From assembly GCA_963931495.1 (NCBI GenBank), contig OZ007020.1:780001-812000 (forward strand): a stretch of DNA of 32,000 bases, given 5' to 3'. The DNA is from an uncultured Alphaproteobacteria bacterium (lineage in GTDB: Bacteria > Pseudomonadota > Alphaproteobacteria > Rs-D84). Of the stretch, positions 6,565 through 22,298 are shown piece after piece (position 1 is the stretch's first letter; the number at the start of each line of letters is the position of its first letter). The notes under the pieces were generated by a model, which was given only the letters and a program-made list of their open reading frames with translations, had not been told where the DNA came from and did no database searches. The position numbers and the translations under genes were made by a program.

Positions 6565-7020
6565 TCAATATTTAATCGCATACATGCATTCCAACATCTT
6601 TGGAACGTTGTCTGGTTTAATACCATTTAGCAATTTGACCGAAGCAATTGAACCAAATGGCGCATAAAACTTTGGTTGTATGACGCTTTTTGTATTATAT
6701 TCATTAAATTCATAATATTTTGCGATGCAGTTATTTATCGCTGCTTCTGTATCCGCGATTGACATATGGATAAAAATATCCCATACCTGGTCAGCAATTT
6801 CATCATATTTGTAATCGTCAAACCGATAGTTGTCATAAAAGTATTCCAAAACTTGTTTTGATTGCGCCTCTATCAGGTCGGATATATTTGCAGGGAAATT
6901 ATATCTCGGGTGCGATGCGCGGTATATGTCCAGCTTTTCTTGATTTACGCCCCACGCATTATCAACGCCAGCATTTGCCGCAAACGGCAACATAAACAAC
7001 AGCAATACCAGTTTTTTCAT
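6565..7020 (-). CDS. Secreted protein; paralogue of the GH108 core of the upstream gene, lacking the catalytic EGGY motif
   Basis: Signal peptide MKKLVLLLFMLPFAANA. 'NAWGVNQEKLDIYRASHPRYNFPANISDLIEAQSKQVLEYFYDNY' aligns by eye with 'NAGITKGALDRYNTDHPNFNFPHNVRELTPEQAVQIYKEDYYDER' of ORF 7052..7909. Confidence 0.6.
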   Translation of the reverse strand: MKKLVLLLFMLPFAANAGVDNAWGVNQEKLDIYRASHPRYNFPANISDLIEAQSKQVLEYFYDNYRFDDYKYDEIADQVWDIFIHMSIADTEAAINNCIAKYYEFNEYNTKSVIQPKFYAPFGSIASVKLLNGIKPDNVPKMLECMYAIKY

Positions 7021-7051
7021 ACAGTCATTATCAAAATAATAACATTAAAAA

Positions 7052-7909
7052 TCAATATCTTTCTGTACGTGCCGTCCAACCATCGCCATATTTGTTCCAA
7101 GTTGAAAGTCCTGCCAAATATTCCAAACGCTTTTCCTTCAAAGCATCCATAAAAGCCGCTATGTCTGAATTGGGGATATTATTTAGCGCATTGATTGTGT
7201 CATTGCCCATAATACCATCAACAGCCAATTTTGTGTTTGTGTTTTCGTTTAATGTTTCCTGAACTATGCGACTGACAGCAGAAAATTTACTCATAACCCC
7301 CATATCAAAAATAGCACCAGCAATACGGTCGTTTTCTATTTCATTTATTCGTCGTTCGTCATAGTAATCTTCTTTATATATCTGAACGGCTTGTTCTGGT
7401 GTTAATTCTCGTACATTATGTGGGAAATTAAAGTTTGGGTGATCTGTATTATATCTGTCTAATGCACCCTTAGTTATTCCTGCATTGGTAGGTTGATCAA
7501 TAAGGTTCGGATTATCTACATACCCTCCTTCTTCTGCCATAGTGTGTAATATTATTTTGTCGCGTCGTTCATCACCGATAGGCTTATCGTTGTCATCAAC
7601 TTCGCATTCTTCTATCCAACAGCGACAATTAATATGATGCGGGAAATTTGGTATTTCTTCTTGGTGTTCATAAATTTTGTCCGCAAAACTGGCACAGTCA
7701 TCACACGTTTTTTCATCATCAATCGCATGCCACACCCATACAGTTCGCACAGAAATATTGCGCCCAGTTGAATCTGTAAAACTTTTTCCATACTTTTGGT
7801 TAAAATAATCCTTAACTTGTTTAGCCACATTTTCGTGATTTGGGTTATTGAGGTTGGTATAAGCATCACTTGTCATTAAGTCTTTGATGTTGTTTGGTAG
7901 TTTGTTCAT
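7052..7909 (-). CDS. Fusion protein: MuF/SPP1-gp7-type C-terminal motif plus GH108 muramidase plus PG_binding_3-like domain
   Basis: N-terminal part 'WHAIDDEKTCDDCASFADKIY...PNFPHHINCRCWIEE' is the phage head-morphogenesis MuF motif. 'AEEGGYVDNP...NAGITKG' is the GH108 catalytic region. 'KLAVDGIMGNDTINALNN' is a peptidoglycan-binding repeat. Confidence 0.75.
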   Translation of the reverse strand: MNKLPNNIKDLMTSDAYTNLNNPNHENVAKQVKDYFNQKYGKSFTDSTGRNISVRTVWVWHAIDDEKTCDDCASFADKIYEHQEEIPNFPHHINCRCWIEECEVDDNDKPIGDERRDKIILHTMAEEGGYVDNPNLIDQPTNAGITKGALDRYNTDHPNFNFPHNVRELTPEQAVQIYKEDYYDERRINEIENDRIAGAIFDMGVMSKFSAVSRIVQETLNENTNTKLAVDGIMGNDTINALNNIPNSDIAAFMDALKEKRLEYLAGLSTWNKYGDGWTARTERY

Positions 7910-7951
7910 TGTATATCCCTGGGTTGTAAAAAAATGCTATATGATGGGAAA

Positions 7952-7976
7952 TAAAAAAAGACGACCAATGTCGTCT
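7952..7976 (-). terminator. Intrinsic terminator upstream of the MuF-GH108 gene
   Basis: Minus-strand agacgac-attg-gtcgtct hairpin (7 bp) followed by a T-run. Confidence 0.6.
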
Positions 7977-7991
7977 GTTATGCGGACGCGT

Positions 7992-8019
7992 ATTATACTA
8001 TAAAAAGGTAATTTTTCAA
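7992..8019 (-). promoter_or_regulatory. Near-consensus sigma70-like promoter (TTGAAA-16-TATAAT) firing into the terminator at 7952..7976
   Basis: Read on the minus strand: ttgaaa aattacctttttatag tataat acgcgtccgcataacag. Confidence 0.5.
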
Positions 8020-8146
8020 TATATTTATGTCTTTACATCACGTCGGGGCATATACCGCATTCGGCCAGCAGCGACCCAAAATCCCATTTCACAATCATGA
8101 AATCACGAATATATTTTTGTCCCGATGTTCGTATCAATTTAATAAG

Positions 8147-8216
8147 TCCGCCCCAGAAATAAAAAACGCCCAACGGGCGATTTTTATTTATGTGCACAGG
8201 ATGCGGATGAGAACCG
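8147..8216 (+). repeat. Repeat copy B: last 9 nt of tRNA-His, terminator and conserved downstream block
   Basis: 'tccgccccagaaataaaaaacgcccaacgggcgatttttatttatgtgcacaggatgcggatgagaaccg'. It matches copies A and C except for homopolymer lengths. Confidence 0.8.
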
Positions 8217-8311
8217 GCGAGAAAGCCGTTCGAACCGCTGCAAAAAGGCGGACGAGAGTACGCCGGTTGTGCGAATGCACAATTTTGCAAGGTGATGAAG
8301 CGCAGCGAAAT

Positions 8312-8401
8312 AATCCGGTCATCCGCCCCAGAAATAAAAAAACGCCCAACGGGCGATTTTTTATTTATGTGCACAGGATGCGGATGATAACCGCGGTTCG
8401 C
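8312..8401 (+). repeat. Repeat copy C: last ~19 nt of tRNA-His, terminator and conserved downstream block
   Basis: 90 nt, near-identical to 6326..6415. Its hairpin with flanking A/T runs can also terminate the minus-strand phage operon that ends at 8417. Confidence 0.85.
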
Positions 8402-8416
8402 CGTGGCAATGTTTAA

Positions 8417-8674
8417 TTACTGTATTACCGCTGTTTTTATTAATGCAACATCTTCACGAATTGTGTCTATTTTTATCTGCAACTGGCCCAGTCCGGTTTC
8501 CAGAATCGTCGTACGATTTTCCAGCGCGGTTATGCGACTGTCGGCGCGATGCAATTCATCCAATGACGAATCTTGGCGCGCAACCCAGTATATAACCCCG
8601 GCAACAAACGCAATTAAAAACCAACTGTTCCGTAAAAAATCCAACACCCCAATTGCGCCCAGTTGTCGTTTCAT
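8417..8674 (-). CDS. Small membrane-anchored coiled-coil protein (i-spanin-like architecture)
   Basis: 85 aa with an N-terminal TM helix (WFLIAFVAGVIYWVA) followed by a heptad-rich helix. Start overlaps the stop of the upstream ORF. Function not established. Confidence 0.55.
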   Translation of the reverse strand: MKRQLGAIGVLDFLRNSWFLIAFVAGVIYWVARQDSSLDELHRADSRITALENRTTILETGLGQLQIKIDTIREDVALIKTAVIQ

Positions 8675-8865
8675 TATTTCCCCCGTTCAATCATATTTTC
8701 AATTTGGTGAACCAATGCACGTTGCGCTTCCAGACTGCGCAGTTGGGCATCTGTGGCATCCGGCCCCAGTACGCGTTCAATTGTAATTTTGCGCAAGTGC
8801 GATAATACCGCTGCGCCACTGGTCGTAGAAAATGTTCGTGCATAATTTTGTTCTGTATCTTTCAT
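8674..8865 (-). CDS. Small conserved phage protein downstream of portal (Bbp19-like by recollection)
   Basis: Start moved to the Met after SD 'aggag' (MKDTEQNYARTFSTTSGAAVLSHLRK...). The resemblance to small proteins next to podophage portals is from memory only. Confidence 0.5.
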   Translation of the reverse strand: MKDTEQNYARTFSTTSGAAVLSHLRKITIERVLGPDATDAQLRSLEAQRALVHQIENMIERGK

Positions 8866-8881
8866 TGTCATCTCCTGGGGC

Positions 8882-10105
8882 TTATAAAATTGTTTCAGCA
8901 GCAGCCATTTGCGCAATGGGTGCAATGTATTTTAATTCAGCGTCGCTGTTCAGTGTAATCCGGTCAATAATGCCACGACGGGACAAAATCTGTAATCCGC
9001 GTTCAACCAACGGACGAATAAATTCATGCAGCAATCGTCCATATGTTGCCCCCAATATGCGGACCATATCCGCGCTGCGCGCCATAATTTCTGTGGCGGT
9101 CATTTCTTTTTCAGACAGCAACCCCAGTCTGTCCGCCAGCATTGTGTGGCGTATGCGTTCACGCAAGTCTTTCAAAACAATCTGGGACACGTCAAAATTC
9201 GCCCCAGATGTTAACGGCGTCAATCCAGATGACCCAACGGCTTTGGGTATAATTGCCCCAGGTGTTAAATTAATATTAGACAAATTTATAACACCGTCAT
9301 CGTCGGCCTGCCATATGCCGGAAACAGCAATCGTTGCGTTTTTCAACACCAATTCAACAACCTTGTTTGCTGTTTTAATGTCTGGTAATGCACGCAACAC
9401 CGGCCCACGGCCGTATTGTTCGCCACTGGCCACAGACCAGCGGAATATGATGTACGGGTTTGTTTCAAATTTTCCGGTGGCAACAATGTTATTTTCTAAA
9501 TCCCCACCAACATCCATCCATGCGGTGAATTCCGTATCAACCAAACTTTGCACCAACCGCAGTGGTGTTTCAGGGTCATTTTTTATTGTATCGCGCAAAT
9601 TAGCCGGTGGGGTCCAAGATGGATATTTTTCCATGACTTCGCGCGCCGGCATGGTCGCCGTATGAAACACGGCCCCATTCAGTATCGCAATGTCACGCAT
9701 CGGAATCGCAGTAAACGAAAATGCCGATGACGCACCAATCGGATTTTCCGCCATAAACAGGCATGCTGTGCCCAGAATTATTAAATCCATATAGCACTGG
9801 TGAACAGTGGTGTAAAAATTAGAATCATTTAGATTCGCACGTAACGCCATTGTTGCAGTTTCTGCATCGGGTGATTGTGCACTTTCTGGGACCAATGAAA
9901 TCCACAATGATTCTGGCGGTGTCAGCAATGAATAAATTGATGCCGCCAAATTATCTGCGGCATCCGCAGCGGTGGCATCAAACATCATCGCCGCATCATC
10001 ATCAGCGGTTGGCATAGTGTACCGCAATGCTGCATCCCAACGATTTAACCATGGTGTACGCAAATCCAGCGCACGGCGATACATCTGTTGTAAATTTTTT
10101 TTCAT
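8882..10105 (-). CDS. Portal (head-to-tail connector) protein, T7-like family
   Basis: 407 aa. N-terminus 'YRRALDLRTPWLNRWDAALRYTMP' and 'LAASIYSLLTPPESLWISL' resemble the Head-tail_con family. Lies immediately downstream of terminase. Confidence 0.75.
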   Translation of the reverse strand: MKKNLQQMYRRALDLRTPWLNRWDAALRYTMPTADDDAAMMFDATAADAADNLAASIYSLLTPPESLWISLVPESAQSPDAETATMALRANLNDSNFYTTVHQCYMDLIILGTACLFMAENPIGASSAFSFTAIPMRDIAILNGAVFHTATMPAREVMEKYPSWTPPANLRDTIKNDPETPLRLVQSLVDTEFTAWMDVGGDLENNIVATGKFETNPYIIFRWSVASGEQYGRGPVLRALPDIKTANKVVELVLKNATIAVSGIWQADDDGVINLSNINLTPGAIIPKAVGSSGLTPLTSGANFDVSQIVLKDLRERIRHTMLADRLGLLSEKEMTATEIMARSADMVRILGATYGRLLHEFIRPLVERGLQILSRRGIIDRITLNSDAELKYIAPIAQMAAAETIL

Positions 10106-10137
10106 GTTATATATCCTTTTGTTTGTTTATAAAAATT

Positions 10138-10156
10138 CCCCCGACAAATGCCGGGG
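10138..10156 (-). terminator. Weak terminator-like hairpin between the terminase C-half and portal
   Basis: Minus strand ccccggc-attt-gtcgggg (7 bp including one G.U), followed by 'aattttta'. Confidence 0.35.
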
Positions 10157-10197
10157 AAACCTGAAATGCGAAACAACATTTTTATGCTGTTTCTGGG

Positions 10198-10226
10198 GTT
10201 ATAGTATTTCGTCTTTATACATTGAA
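10198..10226 (-). promoter_or_regulatory. Promoter-like TTCAAT-17-TATAAC overlapping the end of the terminase C-half
   Basis: Minus strand: ttcaat gtataaagacgaaatac tataac. Confidence 0.35.
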
Positions 10227-11063
10227 TTCTGTATTCGCAGAAAATGGGCGTACAGACTGGCCCAATGGACGGACCGGTGTCGGAATCGCGCATATTGCGC
10301 CGGCAACGGCATCTAAACCATCATCATGACCAACATATCCGTATGGCGCCCAACCAATCATTTCAGATATCAGTGGGGTTGACTGGATACGTCGGTGTGC
10401 GTACATACGCCCTGTCGTTAAAATCGGTTCAATGGAATCCAATATTCTTGTTTCTTTGTTGTGATGATTTGATACAGGCACAATGTGGATTCGCCGATTT
10501 TGGCGCATGGCGACATCACGCATAATTTCTGGCAATGCAACCCCCATACCATTTGTTTCCACATATATGCGCCCCAGACAATGACGGCACATAAAATCCA
10601 GCACCATTTCACACTGGCGGGCCAATGGATGTAAATCATTATCTGGAACAATCAAGTACAATACATCATGGATGAAAATATTTTTTGTCTTGTCATCCCG
10701 GTATACCAGAACACAAACACTGGCGTCTGATTTCTTGTGCGCGGTTGATGGGTCCCAGTATGCGGTTGCGCCCGTGATAACATGGTCACCAATTCGCGCC
10801 CTGCGTGAATCAAAATCATCGTCATACAGGTGCAGTGCATCTGGATCCAGGCGCGCACGTTCGGGCGCAATAAATTCCAACATCATTTGCGCTGAAAAAT
10901 ATCGGTCGCCGACCGTATGGCGCAATTCATCTATGCGCGACAGCGGAAACAATTCTGGCCATGCGGGCGTACCATCAGTGGAAATGATTGGGATTTTTAA
11001 TTCCCGATATCCGCATAAAAAAGGCGTTGAAAAAGCAAAATTTTTATATACTATATTTGACAT
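10215..11063 (-). CDS. terL: Large terminase, C-terminal half (lid plus RNase-H-like nuclease), as a separate ORF of a split gene
   Basis: 'PAWPELFPLSRIDELR...FSAQMMLEF', then the nuclease acidic motifs 'AYWDPS', 'YVETNG' and 'HDDGLDA'. No internal stops. Its ATG overlaps the divergent dnaB ATG (CATG). Confidence 0.8.
   Translation of the reverse strand: MSNIVYKNFAFSTPFLCGYRELKIPIISTDGTPAWPELFPLSRIDELRHTVGDRYFSAQMMLEFIAPERARLDPDALHLYDDDFDSRRARIGDHVITGATAYWDPSTAHKKSDASVCVLVYRDDKTKNIFIHDVLYLIVPDNDLHPLARQCEMVLDFMCRHCLGRIYVETNGMGVALPEIMRDVAMRQNRRIHIVPVSNHHNKETRILDSIEPILTTGRMYAHRRIQSTPLISEMIGWAPYGYVGHDDGLDAVAGAICAIPTPVRPLGQSVRPFSANTEFNV
11027..11054 (+). promoter_or_regulatory. Promoter for dnaB (TTGAAA-16-TACTAT); the predicted start site falls at or next to the ATG, suggesting a leaderless mRNA
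   Basis: ttgaaa aagcaaaatttttata tactat atttgac ATG. No SD before the ATG. Confidence 0.45.
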
Positions 11064-12615: not shown

Positions 12616-12681
12616 TTTTTATACTTGCCACAGGGATAAAAATTGACTAACATTTTGTCAAGAAATCCCAAGGAGATAACA

Positions 12682-13689
12682 ATGGCGCAAGAAGAAATAA
12701 TCTTTCCAAACAACATCAGAAATATTCGTCTGGCCAATGGTATGAAAATGACAGAACTGGCGCGCCAGGCAAATTTATCACTGTCGGCGGTTTCAAAAAT
12801 TGAAAAAGGCGTGCGTCGTCTGAACCAAAAGCAATTATTAAACATATGCAATATTCTGGGATGCAAACTGTCGGATATATTTATCAAGGAATCCGATGCG
12901 GTTGCCGACCAATGGCAAAATGAAATTAAACGCCGATTGAACGATAACGAAGACAGCGGACTGAAAATATTCGGCAGTGGACTGCGCAAAATTCGCCAGC
13001 AATCTGGAAAAACAATTGCCCAGGCGGCCAAAGATGCCGGTATGACATTGTCTGTGTATCATAAAATAGAAGTTGGACAACGCGAAATATATCAAAATGA
13101 AATTGAACCACTGGCTGAATCGTTTGCGTACAGCGTTGATGCAATGCTGGATAAAATTGCCAATATGTACAAGGCCGGCGAATTAACCAAACAAATTAAC
13201 AAGGTCAAAGAACGTGTAAAATCTGTGTTGGTGCCGGGCAACCCATTGTCTGGATTAGATGTACACAGCAGTTTGTATGGCGCAAAGTTGTATGACAGCG
13301 CACGTAAAAAACTGGTCCCAGTGTTTGGCGTGCCGAATGGGAAATCTATCGTATTCAAAAAAACAGACAAAACGATGATTGTTGCACCAATGCCACTGGA
13401 AGGTCACAAAGGCGTCTATGCGGTTATTCCGAACTCTAAACGATTGGGTGGTTTTATCCCAGAAAAATCATATGTGTTCGCAGATGCAGAAATTCCCGCC
13501 CAGGTTGGTGATTTGGCCGTGTGTCTGGATACGGATTTTGATGCGTTAACACCAAGTAATTCTGGGAACGCACAAATCGCGATTATACGCCAGGATTCCA
13601 AGGGCAAAATTTATGGACAAATTTCTTCACCCGAAGAAAAAATTATCGCCAAAACTATGCACAAGGTCGTAATGATTGTAATGGAATAA
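12682..13689 (+). CDS. Tandem XRE-type HTH protein with a CI/LexA (S24)-like C-terminal domain
   Basis: SD 'aggag' 6 nt before the ATG. Two HTH_XRE units ('IRNIRLANGMKMTELARQANLSLSAVSKIEKG', 'LRKIRQQSGKTIAQAAKDAGMTLSVYHKIEVG'). C-terminus 'VPVFGVPNG...GDLAVCL' has a CI-like fold pattern, but the catalytic Ser/Lys are not clearly conserved. Confidence 0.75.
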   Translation: MAQEEIIFPNNIRNIRLANGMKMTELARQANLSLSAVSKIEKGVRRLNQKQLLNICNILGCKLSDIFIKESDAVADQWQNEIKRRLNDNEDSGLKIFGSGLRKIRQQSGKTIAQAAKDAGMTLSVYHKIEVGQREIYQNEIEPLAESFAYSVDAMLDKIANMYKAGELTKQINKVKERVKSVLVPGNPLSGLDVHSSLYGAKLYDSARKKLVPVFGVPNGKSIVFKKTDKTMIVAPMPLEGHKGVYAVIPNSKRLGGFIPEKSYVFADAEIPAQVGDLAVCLDTDFDALTPSNSGNAQIAIIRQDSKGKIYGQISSPEEKIIAKTMHKVVMIVME

Positions 13690-13714
13690 AAATCATACTC
13701 AGGGGGGATAAACA

Positions 13715-14389
13715 ATGAATGCCAAGGCCAGTACAACCGCACAAAAACTGTTGAATCTGTATCGTCAAGAACATGTTATTTTTGGCGGATGGGCCGCCGT
13801 AAATCAGGTCTTTGTTGATGAAGCAACCCCAGATGTATTACACGAATTGCGTGAATTGCCCACTGGTAAAAATCTGATCAAGCATATTGAAAATCTGCGC
13901 AGTGGCAAAACGCCAATGGATTCAATTGAACGCGAATTGTTGCCATACGGTGGCATGATGGCCGAAACAGTTGCAACCGTGCCACTAACAAAAAGCGAAT
14001 GGGCCGAATTGGAATCTGGTATTAACTCATTTACAACTGACCAAGATGGACTGGAAAAAATCCAACAATTGGATGTTATAAAAAAATTCGGTGATCAATG
14101 GATGGTTGCAATTCGCGCGGCATTGTCTGAACGCCCTGAATTGCTGGAAAAATGGGCATTGGTTACAAAAACGTATCGGGCGTATTATCTGTGGAAAGTG
14201 GCCAGTGATATGTTAAATCAACCACTGTCTGAACGTGCGCGCGCACAATTACAGGCCGACATGCCAGAATACGAAACATATTTACCAATGTTTGGCGATG
14301 CCGGTGTTGAATTGTTGGAAAAATTACGTTCGTTTATTTCAACAATGACCCCAGATGCAGACACAACAGACAACCAAAATTCAATCTGA
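13715..14389 (+). CDS. Hypothetical helical protein (224 aa), last gene of the terminase-splitting cassette
   Basis: SD 'aggggg' upstream and an intact ORF. No recognisable motifs. Its stop overlaps the stop of the convergent terminase N-half by 9 nt. Confidence 0.6.
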   Translation: MNAKASTTAQKLLNLYRQEHVIFGGWAAVNQVFVDEATPDVLHELRELPTGKNLIKHIENLRSGKTPMDSIERELLPYGGMMAETVATVPLTKSEWAELESGINSFTTDQDGLEKIQQLDVIKKFGDQWMVAIRAALSERPELLEKWALVTKTYRAYYLWKVASDMLNQPLSERARAQLQADMPEYETYLPMFGDAGVELLEKLRSFISTMTPDADTTDNQNSI

Positions 14390-14980
14390 TGTGCGATAGA
14401 TTGTATCCAATGTATGTGGTGTGCCGACATAAATCATTGTGCCGGTGGGCGACAGAATAAAATCCAGTTCACGCAACCGTTCACGCAGTGTTTCGCGCTT
14501 TTGTGCCGTGTTGCTGGTATTTGGGACCTCTACATCATCACAAATTATTAAATCTGCACGCATGCCAGTGATGTTACCATGGATTCCTTGGCATACGACA
14601 GACGGTTCACGAATGCCGATTGGCCGATTAATCGTAATTCGGCCACTGGCCCATTCTTTCTTGGCCGACGGAATCAAATCTGCGCATCGCGGATGATTTT
14701 CCAGTATATGCCGTATATGCGCAACCATGCGCGATGACAGATTGTTTTCTGCGGATAAAATCAATATCCTGGTTGCAGGATGTAAATACAGCACACACGC
14801 AGCAAATATCCCAACAACTGTTGATTTGCCAGAATGTCGGAACGCCATCAGTAACCCACGATGCGGCGTATCTGTGAATACAGAAAATAAAAATTCCATT
14901 ATTTTATAATGATGTGCCGGCGTTTCCAGCCCCAGCATTTGATTCCATTCATCCAAAAACACATAAAAATCCGATAACAT
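14381..14980 (-). CDS. terL: Large terminase, N-terminal ATPase half, as a separate ORF of a split gene
   Basis: Walker A 'FRHSGKST', Walker B 'ADLIICDDVE', motif III 'YVGTP'. The ORF ends 'LDTIYRTSD*' about 12 residues after motif III. Confidence 0.85.
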   Translation of the reverse strand: MLSDFYVFLDEWNQMLGLETPAHHYKIMEFLFSVFTDTPHRGLLMAFRHSGKSTVVGIFAACVLYLHPATRILILSAENNLSSRMVAHIRHILENHPRCADLIPSAKKEWASGRITINRPIGIREPSVVCQGIHGNITGMRADLIICDDVEVPNTSNTAQKRETLRERLRELDFILSPTGTMIYVGTPHTLDTIYRTSD

Positions 14981-14993
14981 GACGACATCAACA

Positions 14994-15347
14994 TTAACTT
15001 AATAAATCATCAAATTTATCCAGTAATGATTGCAACAAGTTTGGTTTTTTAACACTGGATTGAGCCTTTTTCAGTCGTTCTGTATTTGATTTGCGCTTCT
15101 CGTCATACGGCTTTTCTGTTTCTGATTTCAGTCGTTTTAACACCGCGCCGGTTGTCATACTGCGTCCAGACACACCAGACGCACCATATTTTGCACGCTG
15201 GGTTGCCAATGTTTTTTTTACTAAATTTGTTTTTTCTTTCTCGTCAGCCGCCATATCAGACAAAATTTTTTTTCGTTCTGATTCCGCTGTTCGTTTTGAA
15301 TCTTGGTAATCCAAAACATCTATGACATCTGATACAAGTTGTCCCAT
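14994..15347 (-). CDS. Basic coiled-coil phage protein; small-terminase candidate by position only
   Basis: 117 aa, K/R/E-rich, immediately upstream of terL, which is the position of T7 gp18. No sequence motif recognised. Confidence 0.45.
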   Translation of the reverse strand: MGQLVSDVIDVLDYQDSKRTAESERKKILSDMAADEKEKTNLVKKTLATQRAKYGASGVSGRSMTTGAVLKRLKSETEKPYDEKRKSNTERLKKAQSSVKKPNLLQSLLDKFDDLLS

Positions 15348-15371
15348 AATCTCACCTTTTATTTACATTTG

Positions 15372-17087
15372 TTATACATTGTAATATCCGTACATAGATA
15401 CAGATAATACAGTTACCGGTAATTGTTCATCACTGGATATTGTCCATGGGGCATCAACAGAATTCTTTTGACATCCCAACATATTTACCGAAATATCACC
15501 ACTGTATCCATTTGCGCCATCATCAAAAATGTAATTAGGAAACTGGACACGCAATCCGTTAATAAATAATGTTTTTGTGTCCAGAACACGCGCCGCAATC
15601 TTTCTGATTTTTAATAAACTGGCGTTATGTCCAGATGCGCGAACCGGTAATCCAGATGCGGTAAATGAAAAATCATATTCCCCGGCATCGTTTAATGCCC
15701 CCGATGAAAAACGTTCCAGATAAAAATTCACACCACGCGCAACAATTACATATGTTTCAGAACCAATTGTTGCCACAGATTTGAATTGACCCTGGGTTTT
15801 ATAGCGCGCCCACCCCGAAATTCCCAATGCAGAATTTTGGTTCAATACCGCCATATCGCCATTTTCCATAACAACAAACAACTGGCGCCATTCTTCGTTA
15901 TATGACATATCTATGGGCGATTGCATCAAGTGTTTCGCCTGGGTACACAAATCATTCGCATTGTAATATTCGCCCAATTGATCCAGACTTAATTCACGAA
16001 TGTCTTTTTCGGTACTGGAAATAAATACTGTTGCCCCCTCTATTTTTTGTGGCGGCAGGTATCGTGTGGCAACACTGCCCACAGATGTGTGCTGTTTGAT
16101 ATCAACAGACGATGGGGTTAATGGCTTGCTGGATATCGCCCATTCGCCAAAATTAGTCAGAATTTGCAAGTTATCACTGCTGACCACGGTACAAATTTGT
16201 TGACGTTGTTGTGATAACAATGTTATGAAAATTGCTTCGTCATCCAGTCCGGTACCAACATCAAAATTATTATGGTGGCCAACCTTGGACATCCAAACAC
16301 CACTGGGCCATGACCGTGAACCACCAAATACCAATCTGTCTTGATGAAATGTGATACTGCACGGCCACCCACGCCGGTCACTGAATGCGGATTCATACCA
16401 ATCAGATACCGGGGCCGACGGTAAACTGTATGTGCCATTAGTATATGCATAAACAACCGTTGGACTGATGTATTCCATTATGTACCATTGTTTATTCATC
16501 AACAGTAAACGTCCGCCTTCGTTTTGCGCGGTCCAAAAATTCTTGTTGGTTGTAAATGTTGCGAAATTATTGCCTTGGCTGTTTGAAGTAACTGTAATTT
16601 TTACATCCTTGGAATCATCAAATCGCATAAACGGGATGTTTATTGACATGTCTGAATCGTTGCGTTCAAATTCAAAGTCGCTTAATTCAAATCCATTATC
16701 CGTTTTGCGCAGTATATACGGTGAATAATCTGGGTGAACGAATATCATCGTATCAAATCGCTGTGCATATTGTATTTTATCCAGTGCACTTAATGGCCAC
16801 GGCGATGGAAGATTAGAAACAACCGCCACACCATCAAAAACCAATAAATTTTTGTTGCCCAGTACCAGTAAATAATTTCCTGTTTCGCCAAATGAAAATG
16901 GAACTAAACGCCCAGATCCGCCCAGCGTATCCACAGACACCAATCCACGTCGGCGCGTCAACCCACCACCAAACATAATATCCATATTTTCCAACATGGA
17001 CAAACCATTCAAATTATCATGCGCAAAAAATTCTGGGGCAACTTCGCCATCCGCAAAAGAATTTTGCGTCTTTATAAATTCAGCCAT
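15372..17087 (-). CDS. Tail tubular protein B / nozzle (T7 gp12-like)
   Basis: 571 aa. N-terminus 'QNSFADGEVAPEFFAHDNLNGL...GGLTRRRG' is typical of podophage nozzle proteins. It follows the gp11-like gene. Confidence 0.65.
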   Translation of the reverse strand: MAEFIKTQNSFADGEVAPEFFAHDNLNGLSMLENMDIMFGGGLTRRRGLVSVDTLGGSGRLVPFSFGETGNYLLVLGNKNLLVFDGVAVVSNLPSPWPLSALDKIQYAQRFDTMIFVHPDYSPYILRKTDNGFELSDFEFERNDSDMSINIPFMRFDDSKDVKITVTSNSQGNNFATFTTNKNFWTAQNEGGRLLLMNKQWYIMEYISPTVVYAYTNGTYSLPSAPVSDWYESAFSDRRGWPCSITFHQDRLVFGGSRSWPSGVWMSKVGHHNNFDVGTGLDDEAIFITLLSQQRQQICTVVSSDNLQILTNFGEWAISSKPLTPSSVDIKQHTSVGSVATRYLPPQKIEGATVFISSTEKDIRELSLDQLGEYYNANDLCTQAKHLMQSPIDMSYNEEWRQLFVVMENGDMAVLNQNSALGISGWARYKTQGQFKSVATIGSETYVIVARGVNFYLERFSSGALNDAGEYDFSFTASGLPVRASGHNASLLKIRKIAARVLDTKTLFINGLRVQFPNYIFDDGANGYSGDISVNMLGCQKNSVDAPWTISSDEQLPVTVLSVSMYGYYNV

Positions 17088-17107
17088 ACGGTTATCCTTT
17101 GTTTTAT

Positions 17108-17626
17108 TCAGAATCGTACATTTATTAACGAAAAATCATCTATGGCATTACTGGATGTCGTTGCACTGTCAATGAATTTCGCCGATTGTAATTCCGATTC
17201 ATACAAAGCCGCCAATGTGCGAAATACAGACTGGTCGCCAATCAGTGGAATGCAAAATTCCATCGCTAATTTTGTCGCCGCCAACGATATGAAGTATGCC
17301 GGCATGGATTCAACATCAACATGAACAATGCACAATATGTTCATTTTGTCTGATGGCGATATAATTTGATTGCCAATAATTTGCCCATTGCATTTCAATA
17401 CGCGCATGCATTCAGACGGCAAGAAAAAATCACCATCGGAATCGCGCACTAAATCAAATGACTTGCATGCAAAGCGCCATGGATGAATGGACAACAGTGC
17501 GTCTATGACCGGATTAAACAAAGTTCGCGATAATTGCGCCGCCGGGGAATCTTCTTGGATTGATTGAATTGGCTTTTCCCCCAGTTTTAATAACGCCATT
17601 GAACATAAATCTATTTTTGTCGTCAT
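17108..17626 (-). CDS. Tail tubular protein A / adaptor (T7 gp11-like)
   Basis: 'IDLCSMALLKLGEKPIQSIQEDSPAAQLSRTLFNPVIDALLSIHPWRFA' parallels T7 gp11 '[44 protein letters not shown]'. Confidence 0.7.
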   Translation of the reverse strand: MTTKIDLCSMALLKLGEKPIQSIQEDSPAAQLSRTLFNPVIDALLSIHPWRFACKSFDLVRDSDGDFFLPSECMRVLKCNGQIIGNQIISPSDKMNILCIVHVDVESMPAYFISLAATKLAMEFCIPLIGDQSVFRTLAALYESELQSAKFIDSATTSSNAIDDFSLINVRF

Positions 17627-17675
17627 TTTTTATCCTGTATGTAAAAAATGGGGCGAACAAACGCCCCAATCAAAA

Positions 17676-17903
17676 TTATGACAAATCACCAACTGTTACA
17701 CTGGTTGACACAGTAATTTTTTTAATACTGGTATTATCAGAACCATTAACGATTACTATATCGCCTGTATTCATCAACGTTTTTACATTGTCAAAATATC
17801 CAGATGCCACGATTGTTGCCAATGTTTCATTTGCCGAATAATGCCACAACGTAAATCCATTTGCATATGCAATTACAGATAAATTTTTATTCTGAAAAGC
17901 CAT
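17676..17903 (-). CDS. Small phage structural-module protein (75 aa), function unknown
   Basis: Intact ORF tightly packed between the capsid and adaptor genes. 'NGFTLWHYSANE...GYF...GDIVIV' pattern. Confidence 0.5.
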   Translation of the reverse strand: MAFQNKNLSVIAYANGFTLWHYSANETLATIVASGYFDNVKTLMNTGDIVIVNGSDNTSIKKITVSTSVTVGDLS

Positions 17904-17939
17904 CTGTTATTCCTTTGATTTATATGATTATTATGATAA

Positions 17940-18776
17940 TTATTCCGACACAGTATCGTCGTCTTTGCACTGCAAGCGAACAATACCATCGTTATCAATC
18001 AGAACCGCGCCTTGGGACATACTGTTGCTGATAAAGTGTGCCGCGCGTTCGCCATGCCATGAAATATCTGTTTTTACTTCTTGGCCACATGCATGTCCGA
18101 TGCTGGTTGCATGATAGATAAAGCAATCACGTTCATCAGTATTCGCCAATGGTAATGCATTGTACATAACCCACGTTATGCCCAACCATTTTTTTGATGC
18201 ACCGCCAGATACCAGCGGCAAATCATTACCAACATAATCCGCCGATACAAATTCATCCAACGACAACAGTTCATTCCACTGGTGCACACCGACAACAGCA
18301 AAGCGACGACCATCATCTGGGACATCGTTTTGATTCATAACTTCTATGGCCGACAAAATTAAATCTTTGGTCAGGCCTGTTGAATAATCGCCCACAGATG
18401 TCGTAGATTGATTCATTGCATTGATAATTAATTCATCTGTTTTGCGACCCAGTGCATACGCACCCGCAGACGCGACAACACGACGTTCATCAACATTTGT
18501 TTTTAATTCATCCAATGCATCAACCCAATCGCCGGCATAATAGTCTTGTAATATACATTCCACCGGTTCATGATTCAGATTCATAACTGGCACAATACCA
18601 TGGCGCGATTTTGTGCTGGCGGTACCACGCCCAACCTTTTGAAATGTTGTTGACGCGCCAACGACCCCAGATTTACTGCGTACCGTTGCGCGTAATTTTG
18701 TTCCCATTTGCTGGTATGCCAAATGAACATCGGCTTCAAATTGTTTTATAAAAACATTATCAACAGAAACAGACAT
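17940..18776 (-). CDS. Major capsid protein (HK97-fold family typical of BPP-1/epsilon15-like and alphaproteobacterial podophages)
   Basis: 278 aa. 'FIKQFEADVHLAYQQMGTKLRATVR...', 'YAGDWVDALDELKTNVDER', 'AYALGRKTDELIINAM'. SD 'aaaggaaaa'. Position after the scaffold gene. Confidence 0.8.
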   Translation of the reverse strand: MSVSVDNVFIKQFEADVHLAYQQMGTKLRATVRSKSGVVGASTTFQKVGRGTASTKSRHGIVPVMNLNHEPVECILQDYYAGDWVDALDELKTNVDERRVVASAGAYALGRKTDELIINAMNQSTTSVGDYSTGLTKDLILSAIEVMNQNDVPDDGRRFAVVGVHQWNELLSLDEFVSADYVGNDLPLVSGGASKKWLGITWVMYNALPLANTDERDCFIYHATSIGHACGQEVKTDISWHGERAAHFISNSMSQGAVLIDNDGIVRLQCKDDDTVSE

Positions 18777-18905
18777 TTAATTTTTCCTTTGGTTAAATTG
18801 AAATACAGTGCGTAAATAAATTACGCAAAAAAAATTTTGAATTGTGGTTATGCATAAAATATGCGCCATAAAACAAAACGCACACGGGTCCGAAACGGAT
18901 TGTCC

Positions 18906-18953
18906 AAAAAAATATTCAGTCTGATGTGCACATAAAATCAGACTGAATATTTT
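18906..18953 (-). terminator. Intrinsic terminator (16-bp perfect stem) upstream of the capsid gene
   Basis: aaatattcagtctgat / atcagactgaatattt with an 11-nt loop (gtgcacataaa). T-run follows on the minus strand. Confidence 0.6.
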
Positions 18954-18954
18954 A

Positions 18955-18980
18955 TATAAAAATACCCCGCAATTGCGGGG
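18955..18980 (-). terminator. Intrinsic terminator just after the H1-like gene
   Basis: ccccgc-aatt-gcgggg hairpin, followed on the minus strand by a T-rich tract. Confidence 0.7.
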
Positions 18981-19003
18981 AATATAAAAAGAATTAATTT
19001 ATA

Positions 19004-19348
19004 TTATTTTCTTTTTGCACATGCCTTTTTCGCCGCCGGTTTTTTGGCCGCAACTTTCTTTACAGCAACTTTTTTCGCAACTGGTTTTTTTGCCGCAACT
19101 TTCTTTACAGCGACTTTTTTTGCAACCGGTTTTTTGGCCGCAACTTTCTTTACAGCGACTTTTTTTGCAACCGGTTTTTTGGCCGCAACTTTTTTTGCAA
19201 CTGTTTTTTTTGCCGCAACTTTCTTTACAGCTGGTTTCTTGGCCGCTGGCTTTTTCGCAGCAACCTTTTTCACCGCCGGTTTTTTAGCAGCAGGTTTAGC
19301 AACAGGCTTTTTCGCGGCAGGTTTTGATTTGAAAATTTTGAATGGCAT
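19004..19348 (-). CDS. Lysine/alanine-rich histone H1-like (Hc/AlgP/BpH-type) DNA-binding protein
   Basis: 114 aa made almost entirely of AAKKP/VAKKV repeats. SD 'aaggagag'. Has its own terminators. The plus-strand ORFs over the same repeats are mirror artefacts. Confidence 0.8.
   Translation of the reverse strand: MPFKIFKSKPAAKKPVAKPAAKKPAVKKVAAKKPAAKKPAVKKVAAKKTVAKKVAAKKPVAKKVAVKKVAAKKPVAKKVAVKKVAAKKPVAKKVAVKKVAAKKPAAKKACAKRK
19047..19181. repeat. Tandem 45-bp DNA repeats (three near-identical units, flanked by degenerate copies) inside the H1-like gene
   Basis: ggccgcaactttctttacagcRactttttttgcaaccggtttttt repeated head to tail. Each unit encodes a 15-aa AAKKPVAKKVAVKKV block. Confidence 0.8.
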
Positions 19349-19453
19349 TCTTCTCTCCTTTTCTATTTGTTGGATAGAACAAATTTTTTTGTTCTTACTT
19401 TATATTTTATATTAATCAAAAAAAATAGTAAAGAAGAAAGTGAATTTTTTTAG

Positions 19454-20110
19454 TTACGAATACAATTTTTTAAATCCATTTTCAATTTTGCGAACGTATT
19501 CTGGATCCATATCACGCCAATATTTTGGGTCACGCATCATGCGACGCAATTCATCATCTGATAAAATTTTTTCACCACCATCATCGGTTTGTACGGTTGG
19601 TTCCATTGACTGCATCATTTGATATATGCCTTGGATTCCCTGGGGTGACGAGCACATTGCATCAAATGCATCATGCGGTAAATATTTTTCACCAAATGTA
19701 TTTATTGCACGTAATGCATCATACATTTTTTCGGTACCACCAAAAAAATTTTTTAATTCTGAAATTGCATCTGATTCATTTTTTATTTCAAATAAATCTG
19801 ATAACACAGGTGATAAAAATTCATTCGCAATATCATAAATTTTTTCAACTTGGGATGATGTTAAACCAATTTCTAAAAATTTTTCACGCAACGAATCGTC
19901 ATCAAACATTGGGCATGTTGGATATTCATTTGCATTTTCTGGCACGCCAATTGCGCGATTAAATTTTGCACGTAATTCAGAATCTGATTCAGACGTTGGT
20001 ACAGAAATCATTGTGCCAATCTTTTTTTCTAGTTCTGTATACGATTTTAATAACGCATCTGTATTTAACGTACCATCTTTATTCAGAAATTTTTCTGGAA
20101 TTTTTTCCAT
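19454..20110 (-). CDS. Capsid scaffolding protein (putative)
   Basis: Start at the internal ATG after SD 'aaaggaaag' (MEKIPEKFLNKDGTLNTDALLKSYTELEKKIG...). Acidic, helical, upstream of the capsid gene. The N-terminal motif recalls podophage scaffold proteins. Confidence 0.6.
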   Translation of the reverse strand: MEKIPEKFLNKDGTLNTDALLKSYTELEKKIGTMISVPTSESDSELRAKFNRAIGVPENANEYPTCPMFDDDSLREKFLEIGLTSSQVEKIYDIANEFLSPVLSDLFEIKNESDAISELKNFFGGTEKMYDALRAINTFGEKYLPHDAFDAMCSSPQGIQGIYQMMQSMEPTVQTDDGGEKILSDDELRRMMRDPKYWRDMDPEYVRKIENGFKKLYS

Positions 20111-20300
20111 TTTTCTTTCCTTTGGTTTCACTGGATTTGCGCAGAAAATAAATTCCGCCAAACATAAATATTGATTGCATCATTGTGAATACATCTGTGT
20201 CGCCCACCATATACGCGCCAACCGCAGACAGTATTCCAATGCCTGATATAATATACGTCCGGTGACCTGATAAAAATCCACCACTGATAATTTTGTTCAT
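20079..20300 (-). CDS. Holin-like small membrane protein
   Basis: MNKIISGGFLSGHRTYIISGIGILSAVGAYMVGD...MMQSIFMFGGIYFLRK followed by a basic tail. Two TM segments. Lies directly after the lysin gene. Confidence 0.5.
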   Translation of the reverse strand: MNKIISGGFLSGHRTYIISGIGILSAVGAYMVGDTDVFTMMQSIFMFGGIYFLRKSSETKGKKNGKNSRKISE

Positions 20301-20317
20301 AAAAATTCCCCTGGTTG

Positions 20318-20728
20318 TTACAGATAAAATAAAAATCCGTCTATGTCGGCGATATATCCGCGTGCGGTTGCCCATGACGGAATCACATCAGAACGATGAA
20401 AGCATGTCGCACCATAACACATATCACCCAACGTGCCGTTCAGCATTCTGTGCACAACACGCAGACACATTTGAAATCCACAATTTATTACATCCACAGA
20501 AATTAATTTATTATCTGGTGATTCTGGACGTAACACATCAAACAAATTAACATCTGATATAACATCATATAAATCGCGTCCAGTAACACGTGCATTATTT
20601 GCAACCAGTGATGCCATCATTTCAACCAATCGTAATGATTGCGCATGCGTTTGTGCATATAATATACGTGCGATTTTATATTCCAGCAATTTCGTTTCAT
20701 CTGGATTTTTTATCAATGTTAATTGCAT
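20318..20728 (-). CDS. SleB/CwlJ-type cell-wall hydrolase (phage endolysin-like)
   Basis: 'ARILYAQTHAQSLRLVEMMASLVANNAR' and 'GATCFH' match the Hydrolase_2 pattern (ARTIYGEARGE...NR; GATHFH). Confidence 0.7.
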   Translation of the reverse strand: MQLTLIKNPDETKLLEYKIARILYAQTHAQSLRLVEMMASLVANNARVTGRDLYDVISDVNLFDVLRPESPDNKLISVDVINCGFQMCLRVVHRMLNGTLGDMCYGATCFHRSDVIPSWATARGYIADIDGFLFYL

Positions 20729-20751
20729 GTTGTATATTCTCTTGCAGTTAT

Positions 20752-20778
20752 AAAAAAAAAGCGCACAACAATGTGCGC
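20752..20778 (-). terminator. Intrinsic terminator t2 immediately upstream of the lysin gene
   Basis: Minus strand gcgcaca-ttgt-tgtgcgc, followed by a run of about 9 T. Confidence 0.7.
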
Positions 20779-20785
20779 GGTCATG

Positions 20786-20816
20786 AAATAAAAAATCCGC
20801 CGAAAAATTTCGCGGA
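20786..20816 (-). terminator. Intrinsic terminator t1
   Basis: Minus strand tccgcg-aaattttt-cggcgga (bulged stem), followed by tttttta ttt. Confidence 0.5.
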
Positions 20817-20842
20817 CAAATTTATTCCTGTTTATGCGTGTC

Positions 20843-20871
20843 AGTATATCATATTTTGATGTAAAAGTCAA
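20843..20871 (-). promoter_or_regulatory. Near-consensus promoter (TTGACT-17-TATACT) at the head of the phage-derived operon
   Basis: Minus strand: ttgact tttacatcaaaatatga tatact gacacgcataaacagg. Located between the birA stop and t1/t2. Confidence 0.55.
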
Positions 20872-20887
20872 GAAAATATTTTTTACA

Positions 20888-21577
20888 TCACATTGTGATT
20901 TCGTCACCATATGCCAATGTATATTGCGCCCCCCGCCGCAACACCAATGCACCATTTTCATTTATCCCGATTAATTCAGCCGTATCGCCGCGATATTTCA
21001 CCGTCTTGTTTAATCCGGCGGCCAAATCCATCCACCGCGTACGTACGTCAACAAATTTTGTCCGACGCCATTTGTCCAAATTCTGCATCAATTTATTTAA
21101 TAAATCGGATTTTTCAATCTTGGCATATTTGTTCAATTTTGTTGTTTTGTAATTTTCAATTGTTGGACATGTCTTGATGTTTATACCAATGCCAACAATA
21201 ACAAATCGCCCAGCATACTCAATTAATATCCCCGAAACCTTTGCGCCATCTATTAATATATCATTTGGCCATTTTATTTTTGGATTAATGCCGAACGCAA
21301 TCAATGTTTCTGCAACAGCGACCGCAACAACATACGACAAACGCGGGTCACGTTCGTCATCAGAATTAAAAATAAAACTGGCATACAAATTGCCGTGATG
21401 TGATATCCACGTACGCTTGTACCGGCCACGTCCCGCAGATTGCGCCATTGCCATAATAACCGTGTGATCACGCGCGACACCGTCAGCCACCATATTCAAT
21501 GCATATGTTTGTGTACTGGGGATTTTATCAAAAGAAATCAGTTTATATCCGGCCAAGTTTATAAACCCCATTTTCAT
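20888..21577 (-). CDS. birA: Biotin--[acetyl-CoA-carboxylase] ligase (no N-terminal HTH)
   Basis: 'QSAGRGRYKRTWISHHGNLYAS', 'KWPNDILIDGAKVSGILIE'. Confidence 0.9.
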   Translation of the reverse strand: MKMGFINLAGYKLISFDKIPSTQTYALNMVADGVARDHTVIMAMAQSAGRGRYKRTWISHHGNLYASFIFNSDDERDPRLSYVVAVAVAETLIAFGINPKIKWPNDILIDGAKVSGILIEYAGRFVIVGIGINIKTCPTIENYKTTKLNKYAKIEKSDLLNKLMQNLDKWRRTKFVDVRTRWMDLAAGLNKTVKYRGDTAELIGINENGALVLRRGAQYTLAYGDEITM

Positions 21578-21992
21578 TTATAATAAAATCACGGCCGAAT
21601 GTTTTGCGCAATTGATAAATTGCGGTATCAACAGTATGCGTTGAAACATCTGGGGCGTACCCCAGCGCAATTCGCAAATCAACATTATTCAATCCGCCTG
21701 ATTTATACAGCGCAATTACAATACGCGCATGCAACGGTGACAAATGCACTGGACGTTTGAACACCGCATTCAAAATACCCGTACCATCCAAGGCCGACAT
21801 AATTGCCGCATTAATATCCATTGCCGATGCCGGCAGTTTTATATCCAATGTGTCAAAGTCAACATCGGCCATATTTATATCATCAACAACAGTGGCGCCG
21901 AAATCTGACAATATGTGGCGCCATACAGAATCTGATGTATATATTTTTATTCCATGTAACATTATATAAAGAATAATAAACACGTTTCGCAT
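21543..21992 (-). CDS. Winged-helix (OmpR/PhoB-type) DNA-binding protein with a short, degenerate N-terminal domain
   Basis: C-terminus 'LSPLHARIVIALYKSGG...STHTVDTAIYQLRKTFGRDFIINENGVYKL' fits the Trans_reg_C pattern. Start uncertain (alternative Met at 21962). Overlaps the birA start. Confidence 0.55.
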   Translation of the reverse strand: MRNVFIILYIMLHGIKIYTSDSVWRHILSDFGATVVDDINMADVDFDTLDIKLPASAMDINAAIMSALDGTGILNAVFKRPVHLSPLHARIVIALYKSGGLNNVDLRIALGYAPDVSTHTVDTAIYQLRKTFGRDFIINENGVYKLGRI

Positions 21993-22052: not shown

Positions 22053-22298
22053 TTATTCGCGTTCTTTATTTTGTGGTTCTATGAATTTTGTAAAATCTTG
22101 GATACTGGCACCAGTTGATGACAGTATTTTTGAAATGCTGTTGGTTGATGGCCAACGTGGCTGGCCTTCTTTGGACCAACGCTTGCTGCGGTTAAATGTT
22201 GTTGGATCTAAACCGCTGCATTTTGCAAGCCCGGAACAAGACATTCCGTGCTCGGTAGCAAAGCGTTCAATTGCCCGCCAAACATCTTCATGGGTCAT
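22053..22298 (-). CDS. Stand-alone CI/Cro-type HTH protein (81 aa)
   Basis: 'MTHEDVWRAIERFATEHGMSCSGLAKCSGLDPTTFNRSKRWSKEGQPRWPSTNSISKIL' matches the N-terminal domain of alphaproteobacterial HTH-S24 repressors. No S24 domain is present here. Confidence 0.7.
   Translation of the reverse strand: MTHEDVWRAIERFATEHGMSCSGLAKCSGLDPTTFNRSKRWSKEGQPRWPSTNSISKILSSTGASIQDFTKFIEPQNKERE

Follow-up and report, generated by a model that had tools for sequence, protein, structure and literature searches.

The window analysed here is a 32,000-nucleotide (nt) stretch of the genome of an uncultured alphaproteobacterium of the order Rs-D84 (contig OZ007020.1, positions 780,001 to 812,000). On its minus strand, birA is followed by a short intergenic region and then by a cluster of phage-derived, T7-like genes that opens with lysis genes. 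The intergenic region contains an A/T-rich tract, a promoter (P1), a short leader, two hairpin-plus-T-run terminators (t1 and t2), and the ribosome-binding site and ATG of a cell-wall hydrolase gene (Table 1). A first-pass annotation of the window had proposed a TTGACT-17-TATACT promoter just past the birA stop, two such terminators behind it, and a lysin ATG about 24 nt further on. The sequence and a consensus scan confirmed the coordinates of the promoter, those of both terminators held as well, and we counted 23 nt between the T-run of t2 and the ATG (20728-20726). Here, we describe this region and consider how it might control the genes behind it.

The window's species has a 959-kb circular-looking contig (a 0.96-Mb genome). 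The order Rs-D84 includes Candidatus Enterousia and has genomes of less than 1 Mb (PMC12306168). Across the GTDB collection, 442 species-level genomes encode relatives of the capsid protein, whose gene lies about 2 kb downstream of P1, and we examined the 80 best loci among these (L010 to L089). They come from metagenome-assembled genomes of uncultured gut Alphaproteobacteria, many of them named Candidatus Enterousia. Our comparative set for the promoter, leader, t1, and t2 comprised 71 distinct intergenic regions from 71 species-level genomes, and terminators inside the cluster were counted in 69 species. The gene order p149, birA, intergenic region, 136-amino-acid (aa) gene, and remaining cluster was seen in about 70 loci, with synteny kept from p149-birA through the terminase gene terL. 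Two contigs with this locus, L029 (CAVGNU010000006.1) and L069 (CAZJGX010000005.1), are filed under Bacteroides fragilis and Muribaculaceae bins, which are probably binning errors.

All 71 intergenic regions had the same series of elements: A-tract, CTTGACTTT, 17-bp spacer, TGnTAnnnT, 20-nt leader, a hairpin with T-run twice, ribosome-binding site, and ATG. P1 was the top-scoring site between 19500 and 22500 in the consensus scan, with 10 of 12 consensus matches plus the TG. However, promoter-like matches in this region were at chance level (12 observed versus 13.3 expected from shuffled sequence), and thus a lone match in a single sequence proves little. We judged P1 to be real because the evidence from the 71 species was decisive. 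The spacer was 17 bp in every one of them, CTTGACTTT and TGnTAnnnT were nearly invariant, and the hexamers reached near-maximal information, whereas the adjacent 3' end of birA was poorly conserved. In five species, the TGA stop of birA falls within TTGACT itself. With hexamers spaced within the 16 to 18 bp of sigma-70-type promoters and conserved among relatives, P1 is probably a strong and constitutive promoter of this type. The A/T-rich tract upstream of it may function as an UP element.

Downstream of P1, the sequence GCATAAACAGGAATAAATTTG begins about 7 bases past the -10, and the predicted transcription start lies at about 20837-20835. The leader consensus was CATAAACAG followed by A.ARATT.TG, in which C7, A8, T9, A12, and A13 were conserved at 90% or more and T26 was invariant. 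The hexamer RATTnT just 5' of t1 had A at position 2 in 61 of 71 regions and T at position 6 in all of them, a loose pattern within A/T-rich sequence. In the window, the element at this place is AAATTT, which might act as a pause site. We considered a 5' hairpin inside the leader (CATAA...TTnTG) and rejected it as a selected structure, as the complementarity was present but covariation was absent (73.6% paired versus 74.2% in shuffles). A leader peptide was also rejected, since an ATG between t1 and t2 is present in some species only. A regular expression search of the window and about 90 loci returned no second copy of the P1 promoter plus leader. Likewise, a search for cis antisense targets within 20 kb of the leader gave nothing recurrent among 70 species, and the best position was shared by 5 of them. 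Rfam 15, searched at gathering and permissive thresholds, had no family near threshold in 20700-20900 or, at the 5' untranslated region (5'UTR) of the capsid gene, in 18700-19050; only two tRNAs passed window-wide.

The 112-nt leader of the window folded into both terminator hairpins (z = -3.8 versus dinucleotide shuffles), which bore out the first-pass claim by a check that the annotation itself had suggested, and terminator-like sites were enriched in the region (10 observed versus 2.8 expected). In a MAFFT alignment not fitted to any structure, 85% of the t1 helix was paired, compared to 71% in column shuffles. Its covariation score was 0.322 versus 0.152 when shuffled; none of 500 shuffles reached it, and slid controls did not exceed 0.09. 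The MAFFT alignment of t2 was out of register due to the variability of the sequence, and we replaced it with a covariance-model alignment, which is biased towards structure. On this alignment, t1 was 89% and t2 97% paired, 16 of 16 pairs had compensatory changes (8 of 8 in t2), and the covariation score was 0.70 compared to 0.19 in shuffles and at most 0.11 in slid controls. All 71 regions had an uninterrupted t2 stem of 6 to 12 bp directly before the T-run, in 65 different hairpin sequences. As a background, a comparable stem (perfect, at least 6 bp, at least 3 G-C pairs) preceded 1.1% of 1499 T-rich tails within conserved genes. A G+C-rich hairpin with a U-run, the hallmark of an intrinsic terminator, was present for t1 in 69 of 71 species (median of -8.6 kcal/mol) and for t2 in all 71. 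In L073 and L077, promoter and leader box are retained along with a strong t2. Judged from these alignments, t1 and t2 are kept by selection as structures and not as sequences.

Across species, the gap between t2 and the ATG measured 21 to 47 nt, including the ribosome-binding site. This leaves no room for another promoter, and transcription can therefore reach the first gene only through the terminators. The first-pass annotation had named a separate promoter beyond t2 as one finding that would overturn its reading, and no species has a place for one. Upstream, birA has no terminator of its own ahead of P1.

Table 1. Features of the window described in the text
Feature	Position	Strand	Remarks
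hth81	22053-22298	minus	81-aa Cro/CI-type helix-turn-helix (HTH) protein; two genes upstream; 83-95% identical across species
p149	21543-21962	minus	139 aa; lineage-specific; directly upstream of birA, on the strand of the gated operon
birA stop TGA	20890-20888	minus	BirA, biotin-protein ligase; Pfam PF03099, NCBIfam birA_ligase
A/T-rich tract TAAAAAATATTTTC	20872..20885	minus	UP-element-like; abuts -35; consensus aAAAatAt..tC in 71 species
Promoter P1	20843..20871	minus	-35 TTGACT 20871-20866; 17-bp spacer; extended -10 TG 20851-20850; -10 TATACT 20848-20843
Leader start	20817..20842	minus	Box GCATAAACAG 20837-20828; A/T element AAATTT 20823-20818, fits loose -10-like NANNNT
t1	20790..20816	minus	Hairpin TCCGCGAAATTTTTCGGCGGA 20816-20796, T6 20795-20790
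t2	20752..20778	minus	Hairpin GCGCACATTGTTGTGCGC 20778-20761, T9 20760-20752
Endolysin	20318..20728	minus	136-aa cell-wall hydrolase, SleB-like; first gated gene; weak ribosome-binding site AAGAGA 20743-20738
Holin-like gene	20079..20300	minus	73 aa; two transmembrane helices and basic C-terminus, called from sequence features alone; 17-nt gap after endolysin
Scaffold	19454..20110	minus	T7-type capsid assembly protein; Pfam PF05396, E = 2e-9; overlaps end of holin gene
Promoter of lysine-rich gene	19432-19404	minus	TTTACT-17-TAAAAT; highly conserved
Lysine-rich gene	19004-19348	minus	HC2/histone-H1-like; between scaffold and capsid; unit with promoter 19004..19432
Internal tandem terminators	18906..18980	minus	H1 18980-18965 plus T-run; H2 stem 18950-18911, T-run to 18906
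Structured RNA, capsid 5'UTR	18838..18908	minus	Two hairpins, each with an AYAA internal loop between G-C pairs; upstream of capsid ATG 18776
H5	18827-18809	minus	Weaker terminator-like hairpin, 3' of the capsid 5'UTR RNA
Capsid	17940-18776	minus	Major capsid protein, PF19821
p75	17676-17903	minus	75 aa
Terminator after p75	17668-17649	minus	Before tail tube gene; 44/69 species
Tail tubular A	17108-17626	minus	PF17212, weak match
Nozzle/tubular B	15372-17087	minus	PF25675, weak match
p117	14994-15347	minus	117 aa
TerL N-terminal (ATPase) half	14381-14980	minus	T7-type; model positions 1-190 of 500
Block splitting TerL	11062-14389	plus	dnaB, p348, p224; p348 is a double-HTH CI/LexA-like protein (CI-like repressor)
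Second phage-derived block	8417..11063	minus	TerL nuclease half, portal, p83, p85
TerL C-terminal (nuclease) half	10215-11063	minus	Model positions 231-500
Portal	8882-10105	minus	T7-type, PF12236
Second lysis unit	7052..8019	minus	Unlinked to endolysin cluster
Muramidase-unit promoter	8019-7992	minus	TTGAAA-16-TATAAT
Muramidase-unit box GCATAACAG	7983-7975	minus
Muramidase-unit terminator	7976-7959	minus	Followed by T7
Muramidase gene	7052-7909	minus	GH108/PG_binding_3

A promoter, leader, and terminator also precede a second, unlinked lysis gene of the window. Its product is a GH108 muramidase with an N-terminal Phage_Mu_F-like segment, and a gene for a small signal-peptide protein is next. 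The same layout precedes muramidase homologues in L091-L096. In all, six species have the design, the window's own and five others, and the genomic neighborhoods differ between species. Each full upstream region had an extended -10 promoter, a leader of 13 to 17 nt, one or two hairpin-plus-U-run terminators, and then a ribosome-binding site; a sixth locus, L093, is cut 74 nt upstream and shows only the two terminators. The GCATAACAG box is common to the window's muramidase unit and the P1 leader, and the muramidase leaders of other species are only loosely similar. In L091, L092, and L095, the gene immediately 5' of the unit lies on the opposite strand. This implies that the terminators at these loci are not there to end an upstream gene and that a short RNA is unlikely to be their purpose. 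The recurrence of the layout at muramidase genes favors control by terminator read-through, as far as sequence can indicate.

The gated genes at P1 agree with the first-pass proposal of a lysin as the first gene of the operon. The 136-aa hydrolase has a weak match to a PHROG endolysin family (E = 1e-4), 18 of its 28 orthologues matched Pfam Hydrolase_2 (best E = 1.5e-7), and the holin-like gene is next. Altogether, the podovirus-derived gene set spans 6565-20728 on the minus strand and adjoins birA at the same chromosomal place in about 70 loci. Phage-derived DNA thus extends beyond the stretch noted earlier, with the portal and the TerL nuclease half at 8882-11063. Among phages, Pelagibacter podophages come nearest, sharing 44% identity in the capsid. 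Amino acid identity across species was 84-93% for the capsid and 77-92% for the portal compared to 59-82% for BirA. Capsid identity above that of BirA implies that the element is vertically inherited under strong purifying selection, and therefore the genes of the cluster must be expressed.

The element shares with gene transfer agents (GTAs) a set of phage-derived structural and lysis genes, vertical inheritance, a fixed chromosomal site, and purifying selection. It is not RcGTA-like, as its genes are T7-like and not of HK97-fold siphovirus-type order or homology. We found no description of this domesticated element in the literature searched. In a 2026 paper (PMC12946183), an element of Faecalibacterium was presented as the first GTA-like one from the human gut microbiome and as the first of podovirus-like morphology.

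The TerL gene is split by the opposite-strand block of dnaB, p348, and p224. This layout was seen in 75 loci, with both halves under selection, and at about 11062 the open reading frame (ORF) of the TerL nuclease half begins in divergent overlap with the start codon of dnaB. We found no convincing direct repeats that could serve as excision sites at the junctions of the insert. A single long late transcript, if made, would run antisense through dnaB. In 40 of 69 species, there was no late-strand terminator in this part, and the others had one or two weak ones, which is compatible with such a transcript and not informative. In many species (L010, L031, L061, L073, and others), an extra ORF of about 170 aa (MYKISYTGDG..FPFFQ..) lies between p117 and the TerL N-terminal half. 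On reading, its product looks like the N-terminal domain of a T7-type tail fiber, and the window's lineage has lost the ORF. A further observation concerns a bidirectional hairpin, CGCCCGTTGGGCG, with A- and T-runs on either side. Its three copies (6357-6369, 8167-8179, and 8343-8355) are embedded in a longer repeated sequence (..CATCCGCATCCTGTGCACATAAATAAAAA..); one adjoins tRNA-His, and the other two are found in the interval from p85 to the muramidase promoter. We would take it for a small dispersed intergenic repeat.

Terminators continue inside the cluster, between genes. They were almost absent on the coding strand within the cluster genes themselves. Their presence is a further point in favor of terminator read-through. 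In the 230-nt spacer from the lysine-rich gene to the capsid gene, 65 of 69 species had one to five of them. The first in the window, H1, has the form CCCCGC..GCGGGG. H2 has a sequence-conserved 12-bp stem, TTCAGTCnGA..TCnGACTGAA, followed by a T-run, and is supported by covariation. The lysine-rich gene has a 5'UTR hairpin (AGAACAAA..TTTGTTCT) and a strong ribosome-binding site, and the length of its product differs among strains (89, 114, and 119 aa) via repeats. Its promoter was the sole other conserved promoter in the cluster, and no conserved promoter-like element was recognized ahead of the capsid gene.

The capsid 5'UTR carries a structured RNA of two hairpins, GG-AYAA-stem...CC and GG-stem...AYAA-CC. 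It was 95.7% paired, with 20 of 25 pairs compensatory when the preceding hairpin H2 is counted in. A covariance model of this RNA found one copy per locus, and the RNA was absent in the nearest phage. It appears to be undescribed.

We lean, with restrained confidence, toward factor-dependent processive antitermination as the explanation of the P1 region: P1 transcripts would read on only when the polymerase has been made resistant to termination. In this model, P1 would probably fire without an activator. Default transcripts would end at t1, giving an RNA of about 42 to 47 nt, or else at t2 (about 77 to 85 nt), and the endolysin, holin, scaffold, and downstream structural genes would be silent by default. 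Recruitment of a factor would take place at the promoter or right behind it, plausibly via the box GCATAAACAG ... ARATTnT. The polymerase modified in this way would pass t1, t2, and the further terminators of the cluster, and one factor would also open the unlinked muramidase gene. The efficiency of termination, the existence of the factor, and its loading are inferred. The stems change freely and the 5' leader sequence is kept, which fits a factor acting on the polymerase or on promoter-proximal DNA or RNA and not a refolding that masks one hairpin. Gating of the endolysin and holin would make sense because leaky expression of these genes would be harmful. The first-pass annotation had also proposed that the operon is expressed by terminator read-through, and this idea gains support from the conservation of promoter and hairpins and the lack of promoter room after t2.

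Several points weigh against this model. Passive partial read-through would yield the same sequence pattern. Canonical t1 is absent in L073 and L077, where only a T-rich stretch is left. The candidate -10-like pause element matches a loose pattern only, and it does so within A/T-rich sequence. Since the lysine-rich gene has its own promoter, the cluster is not one simple operon. Finally, Pfam and NCBIfam searches of the proteins of the 32-kb window gave no match to the Q, AlpA, N, NusG/RfaH, or GafYZ families. We examined two neighbors of the cluster, p149 as a Q- or AlpA-like factor and p224 as a Q-like one, and rejected both. The AlphaFold model of p149 (predicted local distance difference test [pLDDT] score of 87) gave an OmpR/PhoB-like winged helix only, with no PDB sequence match. 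The model of p224 was all-helical (pLDDT of 74.5), with no significant PDB structure match and no PDB sequence match. Profile and structure searches therefore agree with the first-pass statement that no antiterminator is recognizable in the window. The gene p149 and the nearby hth81 are regulatory candidates.

The most serious of the other explanations is passive attenuation, in which there is no dedicated factor and two imperfect terminators hold back a very strong promoter, giving low basal or stochastic expression with perhaps a few cells switched on. We consider this unlikely but worth keeping in mind. The identical anatomy fits it, as do the modest stability of t1, the failure to find an antiterminator, and the two species that live with t2 alone. 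However, three to six conserved terminators stand in series before the capsid and tail genes, and almost no transcript would reach these genes if each terminator merely leaked. The leader sequence is also conserved independently of the hairpins, which leakage does not need, and a steady leakage of holin and endolysin would be costly. A quite improbable alternative is that P1-t1 is a small-RNA gene of about 45 nt with a single-stranded 5' seed. Under this explanation, t2 would be a back-up that also ends the hth81-p149-birA operon, and the phage genes would be transcribed otherwise. Bacterial small-RNA genes typically combine a strong promoter with a conserved 5' segment lacking structure and a terminator, and the missing terminator of birA before P1 fits the role given to t2. 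Nevertheless, no alternative promoter fits into the space before the endolysin ATG, and the leader has neither a recurrent complementary target within 20 kb nor an Rfam match. The design recurs at the unrelated muramidase gene with a different leader, in three loci behind a gene on the opposite strand. Moreover, a short terminated RNA is also an expected by-product of antitermination; 6S RNA is the short terminated RNA from lambda PR'.

Attenuation specific to one hairpin would place the control in the RNA itself. A ligand or an RNA-binding protein would stabilize an alternative leader fold that blocks t1, in the manner of a riboswitch, BglG/LicT, or ANTAR. The conserved leader abuts the 5' arm of t1, and a 5' hairpin is possible in many species. 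This hairpin, however, is the one that lacks covariation, and it does not overlap the t1 stem. Since the stems vary freely and the leader does not, no conserved antiterminator pairing is possible. In addition, t2 and the downstream terminators would stay in force, and again there is no Rfam match, so that we regard this mechanism as very unlikely. Least probable of all, to the point where we would hardly expect it, is coincidence, with t1 and t2 merely terminating the birA operon and the promoter match being nonfunctional. Promoter-like matches do occur at chance frequency in this A/T-rich region, and birA transcripts need an end. Against this, the -35, the -10, and the distance between them hardly vary among 71 species whose flanking sequences are not conserved, and the downstream genes are strongly selected and lack another promoter. 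The same design is also found at the muramidase loci, where no upstream gene needs a terminator.

The antitermination model places the region next to several known systems. As proposed for P1, lambda PR' is a strong constitutive sigma-70 promoter right before the late operon, and intrinsic termination near the start gives a short RNA. The lambda late operon also opens with lysis genes, continues with head genes, and has more terminators further on. The likeness to Q-type control that the first-pass annotation had drawn was well founded in these respects, as the terminators lie between the promoter and the first gene and the operon opens with lysis genes. In lambda, tR' stands alone at about 194 nt, whereas here both terminators are reached by about 85 nt. 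No Q gene adjoins P1, no Q protein (Q-lambda, Q21, or Q82) was detected in the 32-kb window, and the models of p149 and p224 match no Q structure in the PDB. The element is also T7-like and chromosomally fixed and not lambdoid. In the put RNA of HK022, RfaH with ops, and LoaP, a short conserved element of the 5' leader makes the transcribing polymerase resistant to terminators. The put RNA has two hairpins, whereas the leader here is about 20 nt, unstructured, and without similarity to the ops consensus. No NusG paralogue was found in the window.

GTAs of Alphaproteobacteria and a lysis cassette offer published precedents for the design. In the Bartonella GTA (BaGTA), a conserved constitutive promoter (TTGACA-N17-TATCAT) with NANNNT 5 bases downstream is followed by a leader terminator, and the capsid/lysis operon is off until the Q21-like BrrG loads (bioRxiv 10.1101/2024.11.20.624540). 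The PbgtA-K promoter of BaGTA and its regulator BrrG share with our locus an alphaproteobacterial domesticated phage, a near-consensus sigma-70 promoter, and a leader terminator ahead of the operon. However, BaGTA has a leader of 864 bp in which a single weak terminator is predicted, compared to about 110 nt and two canonical terminators here. No Q21-like protein such as BrrG was found in the window, and the structural module comes from a different phage ancestry. AlpA of Pseudomonas aeruginosa opens two unlinked loci, one of which contains the lysis genes alpBCDE, by bypassing intrinsic terminators (PMC7969949). A later paper identified the amidase gene ampDh3 as the second target. The endolysin cluster and the GH108 muramidase gene would be the counterparts of these two loci. 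The AlpA element lies between -35 and -10, whereas here the spacer is moderately conserved and the conserved box is downstream of the -10. P1 and the muramidase promoters have nothing in common in their spacers beyond A/T-rich sequence and the extended -10, and no AlpA-family protein was detected in the window.

In the GTA of Caulobacter (CcGTA), GafZ loads at the promoter and carries the polymerase through the terminators of the cluster with Nus factors (PMC11150451). CcGTA is likewise alphaproteobacterial, with a long phage-derived cluster containing terminators. Its promoter, however, depends on the activators GafY and IHF and has a degenerate -35, and the terminator comes after the first gene. 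P1 has a consensus-like -35 with terminators before the first gene, and no GafY or GafZ homologue was found in the window.

Taken together, these parallels allow a broader and more speculative picture, which we offer as tentative and would not expect to hold in every part. The endolysin cluster and the muramidase gene may form the regulon of a T7-like, GTA-like element in Rs-D84. This regulon would be opened by an antiterminator of an unrecognized family, protein or RNA, that loads at the box just past the start. The AYAA-loop RNA of the capsid 5'UTR would be a second control point, and the element would have its TerL gene split by dnaB and a CI-like repressor gene.

The regulatory layout itself is already known from lambda, AlpA, BaGTA, and CcGTA. 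What appears to be new is the setting: a T7-like domesticated element in reduced genomes of gut Alphaproteobacteria, with a putative antiterminator not recognizable among the known families and a covarying RNA in the capsid 5'UTR. Genomes of less than 1 Mb shed dispensable DNA, and yet about 11 kb of virus-derived genes has been kept here, more tightly than a housekeeping enzyme and with the lethal part behind a double stop. The retention, the conservation, and the double stop together imply that the element is functional and tightly controlled, and the conserved layout points to a safety gate for lethal genes. If the read-through model is true, antitermination control of domesticated phages would extend to a podovirus-like type and to the human and animal gut. 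It also points to a missing antiterminator unlike the known families. The balance of short terminated RNAs versus long transcripts would then provide a handle on whether uncultured gut Alphaproteobacteria swap DNA via self-made particles.

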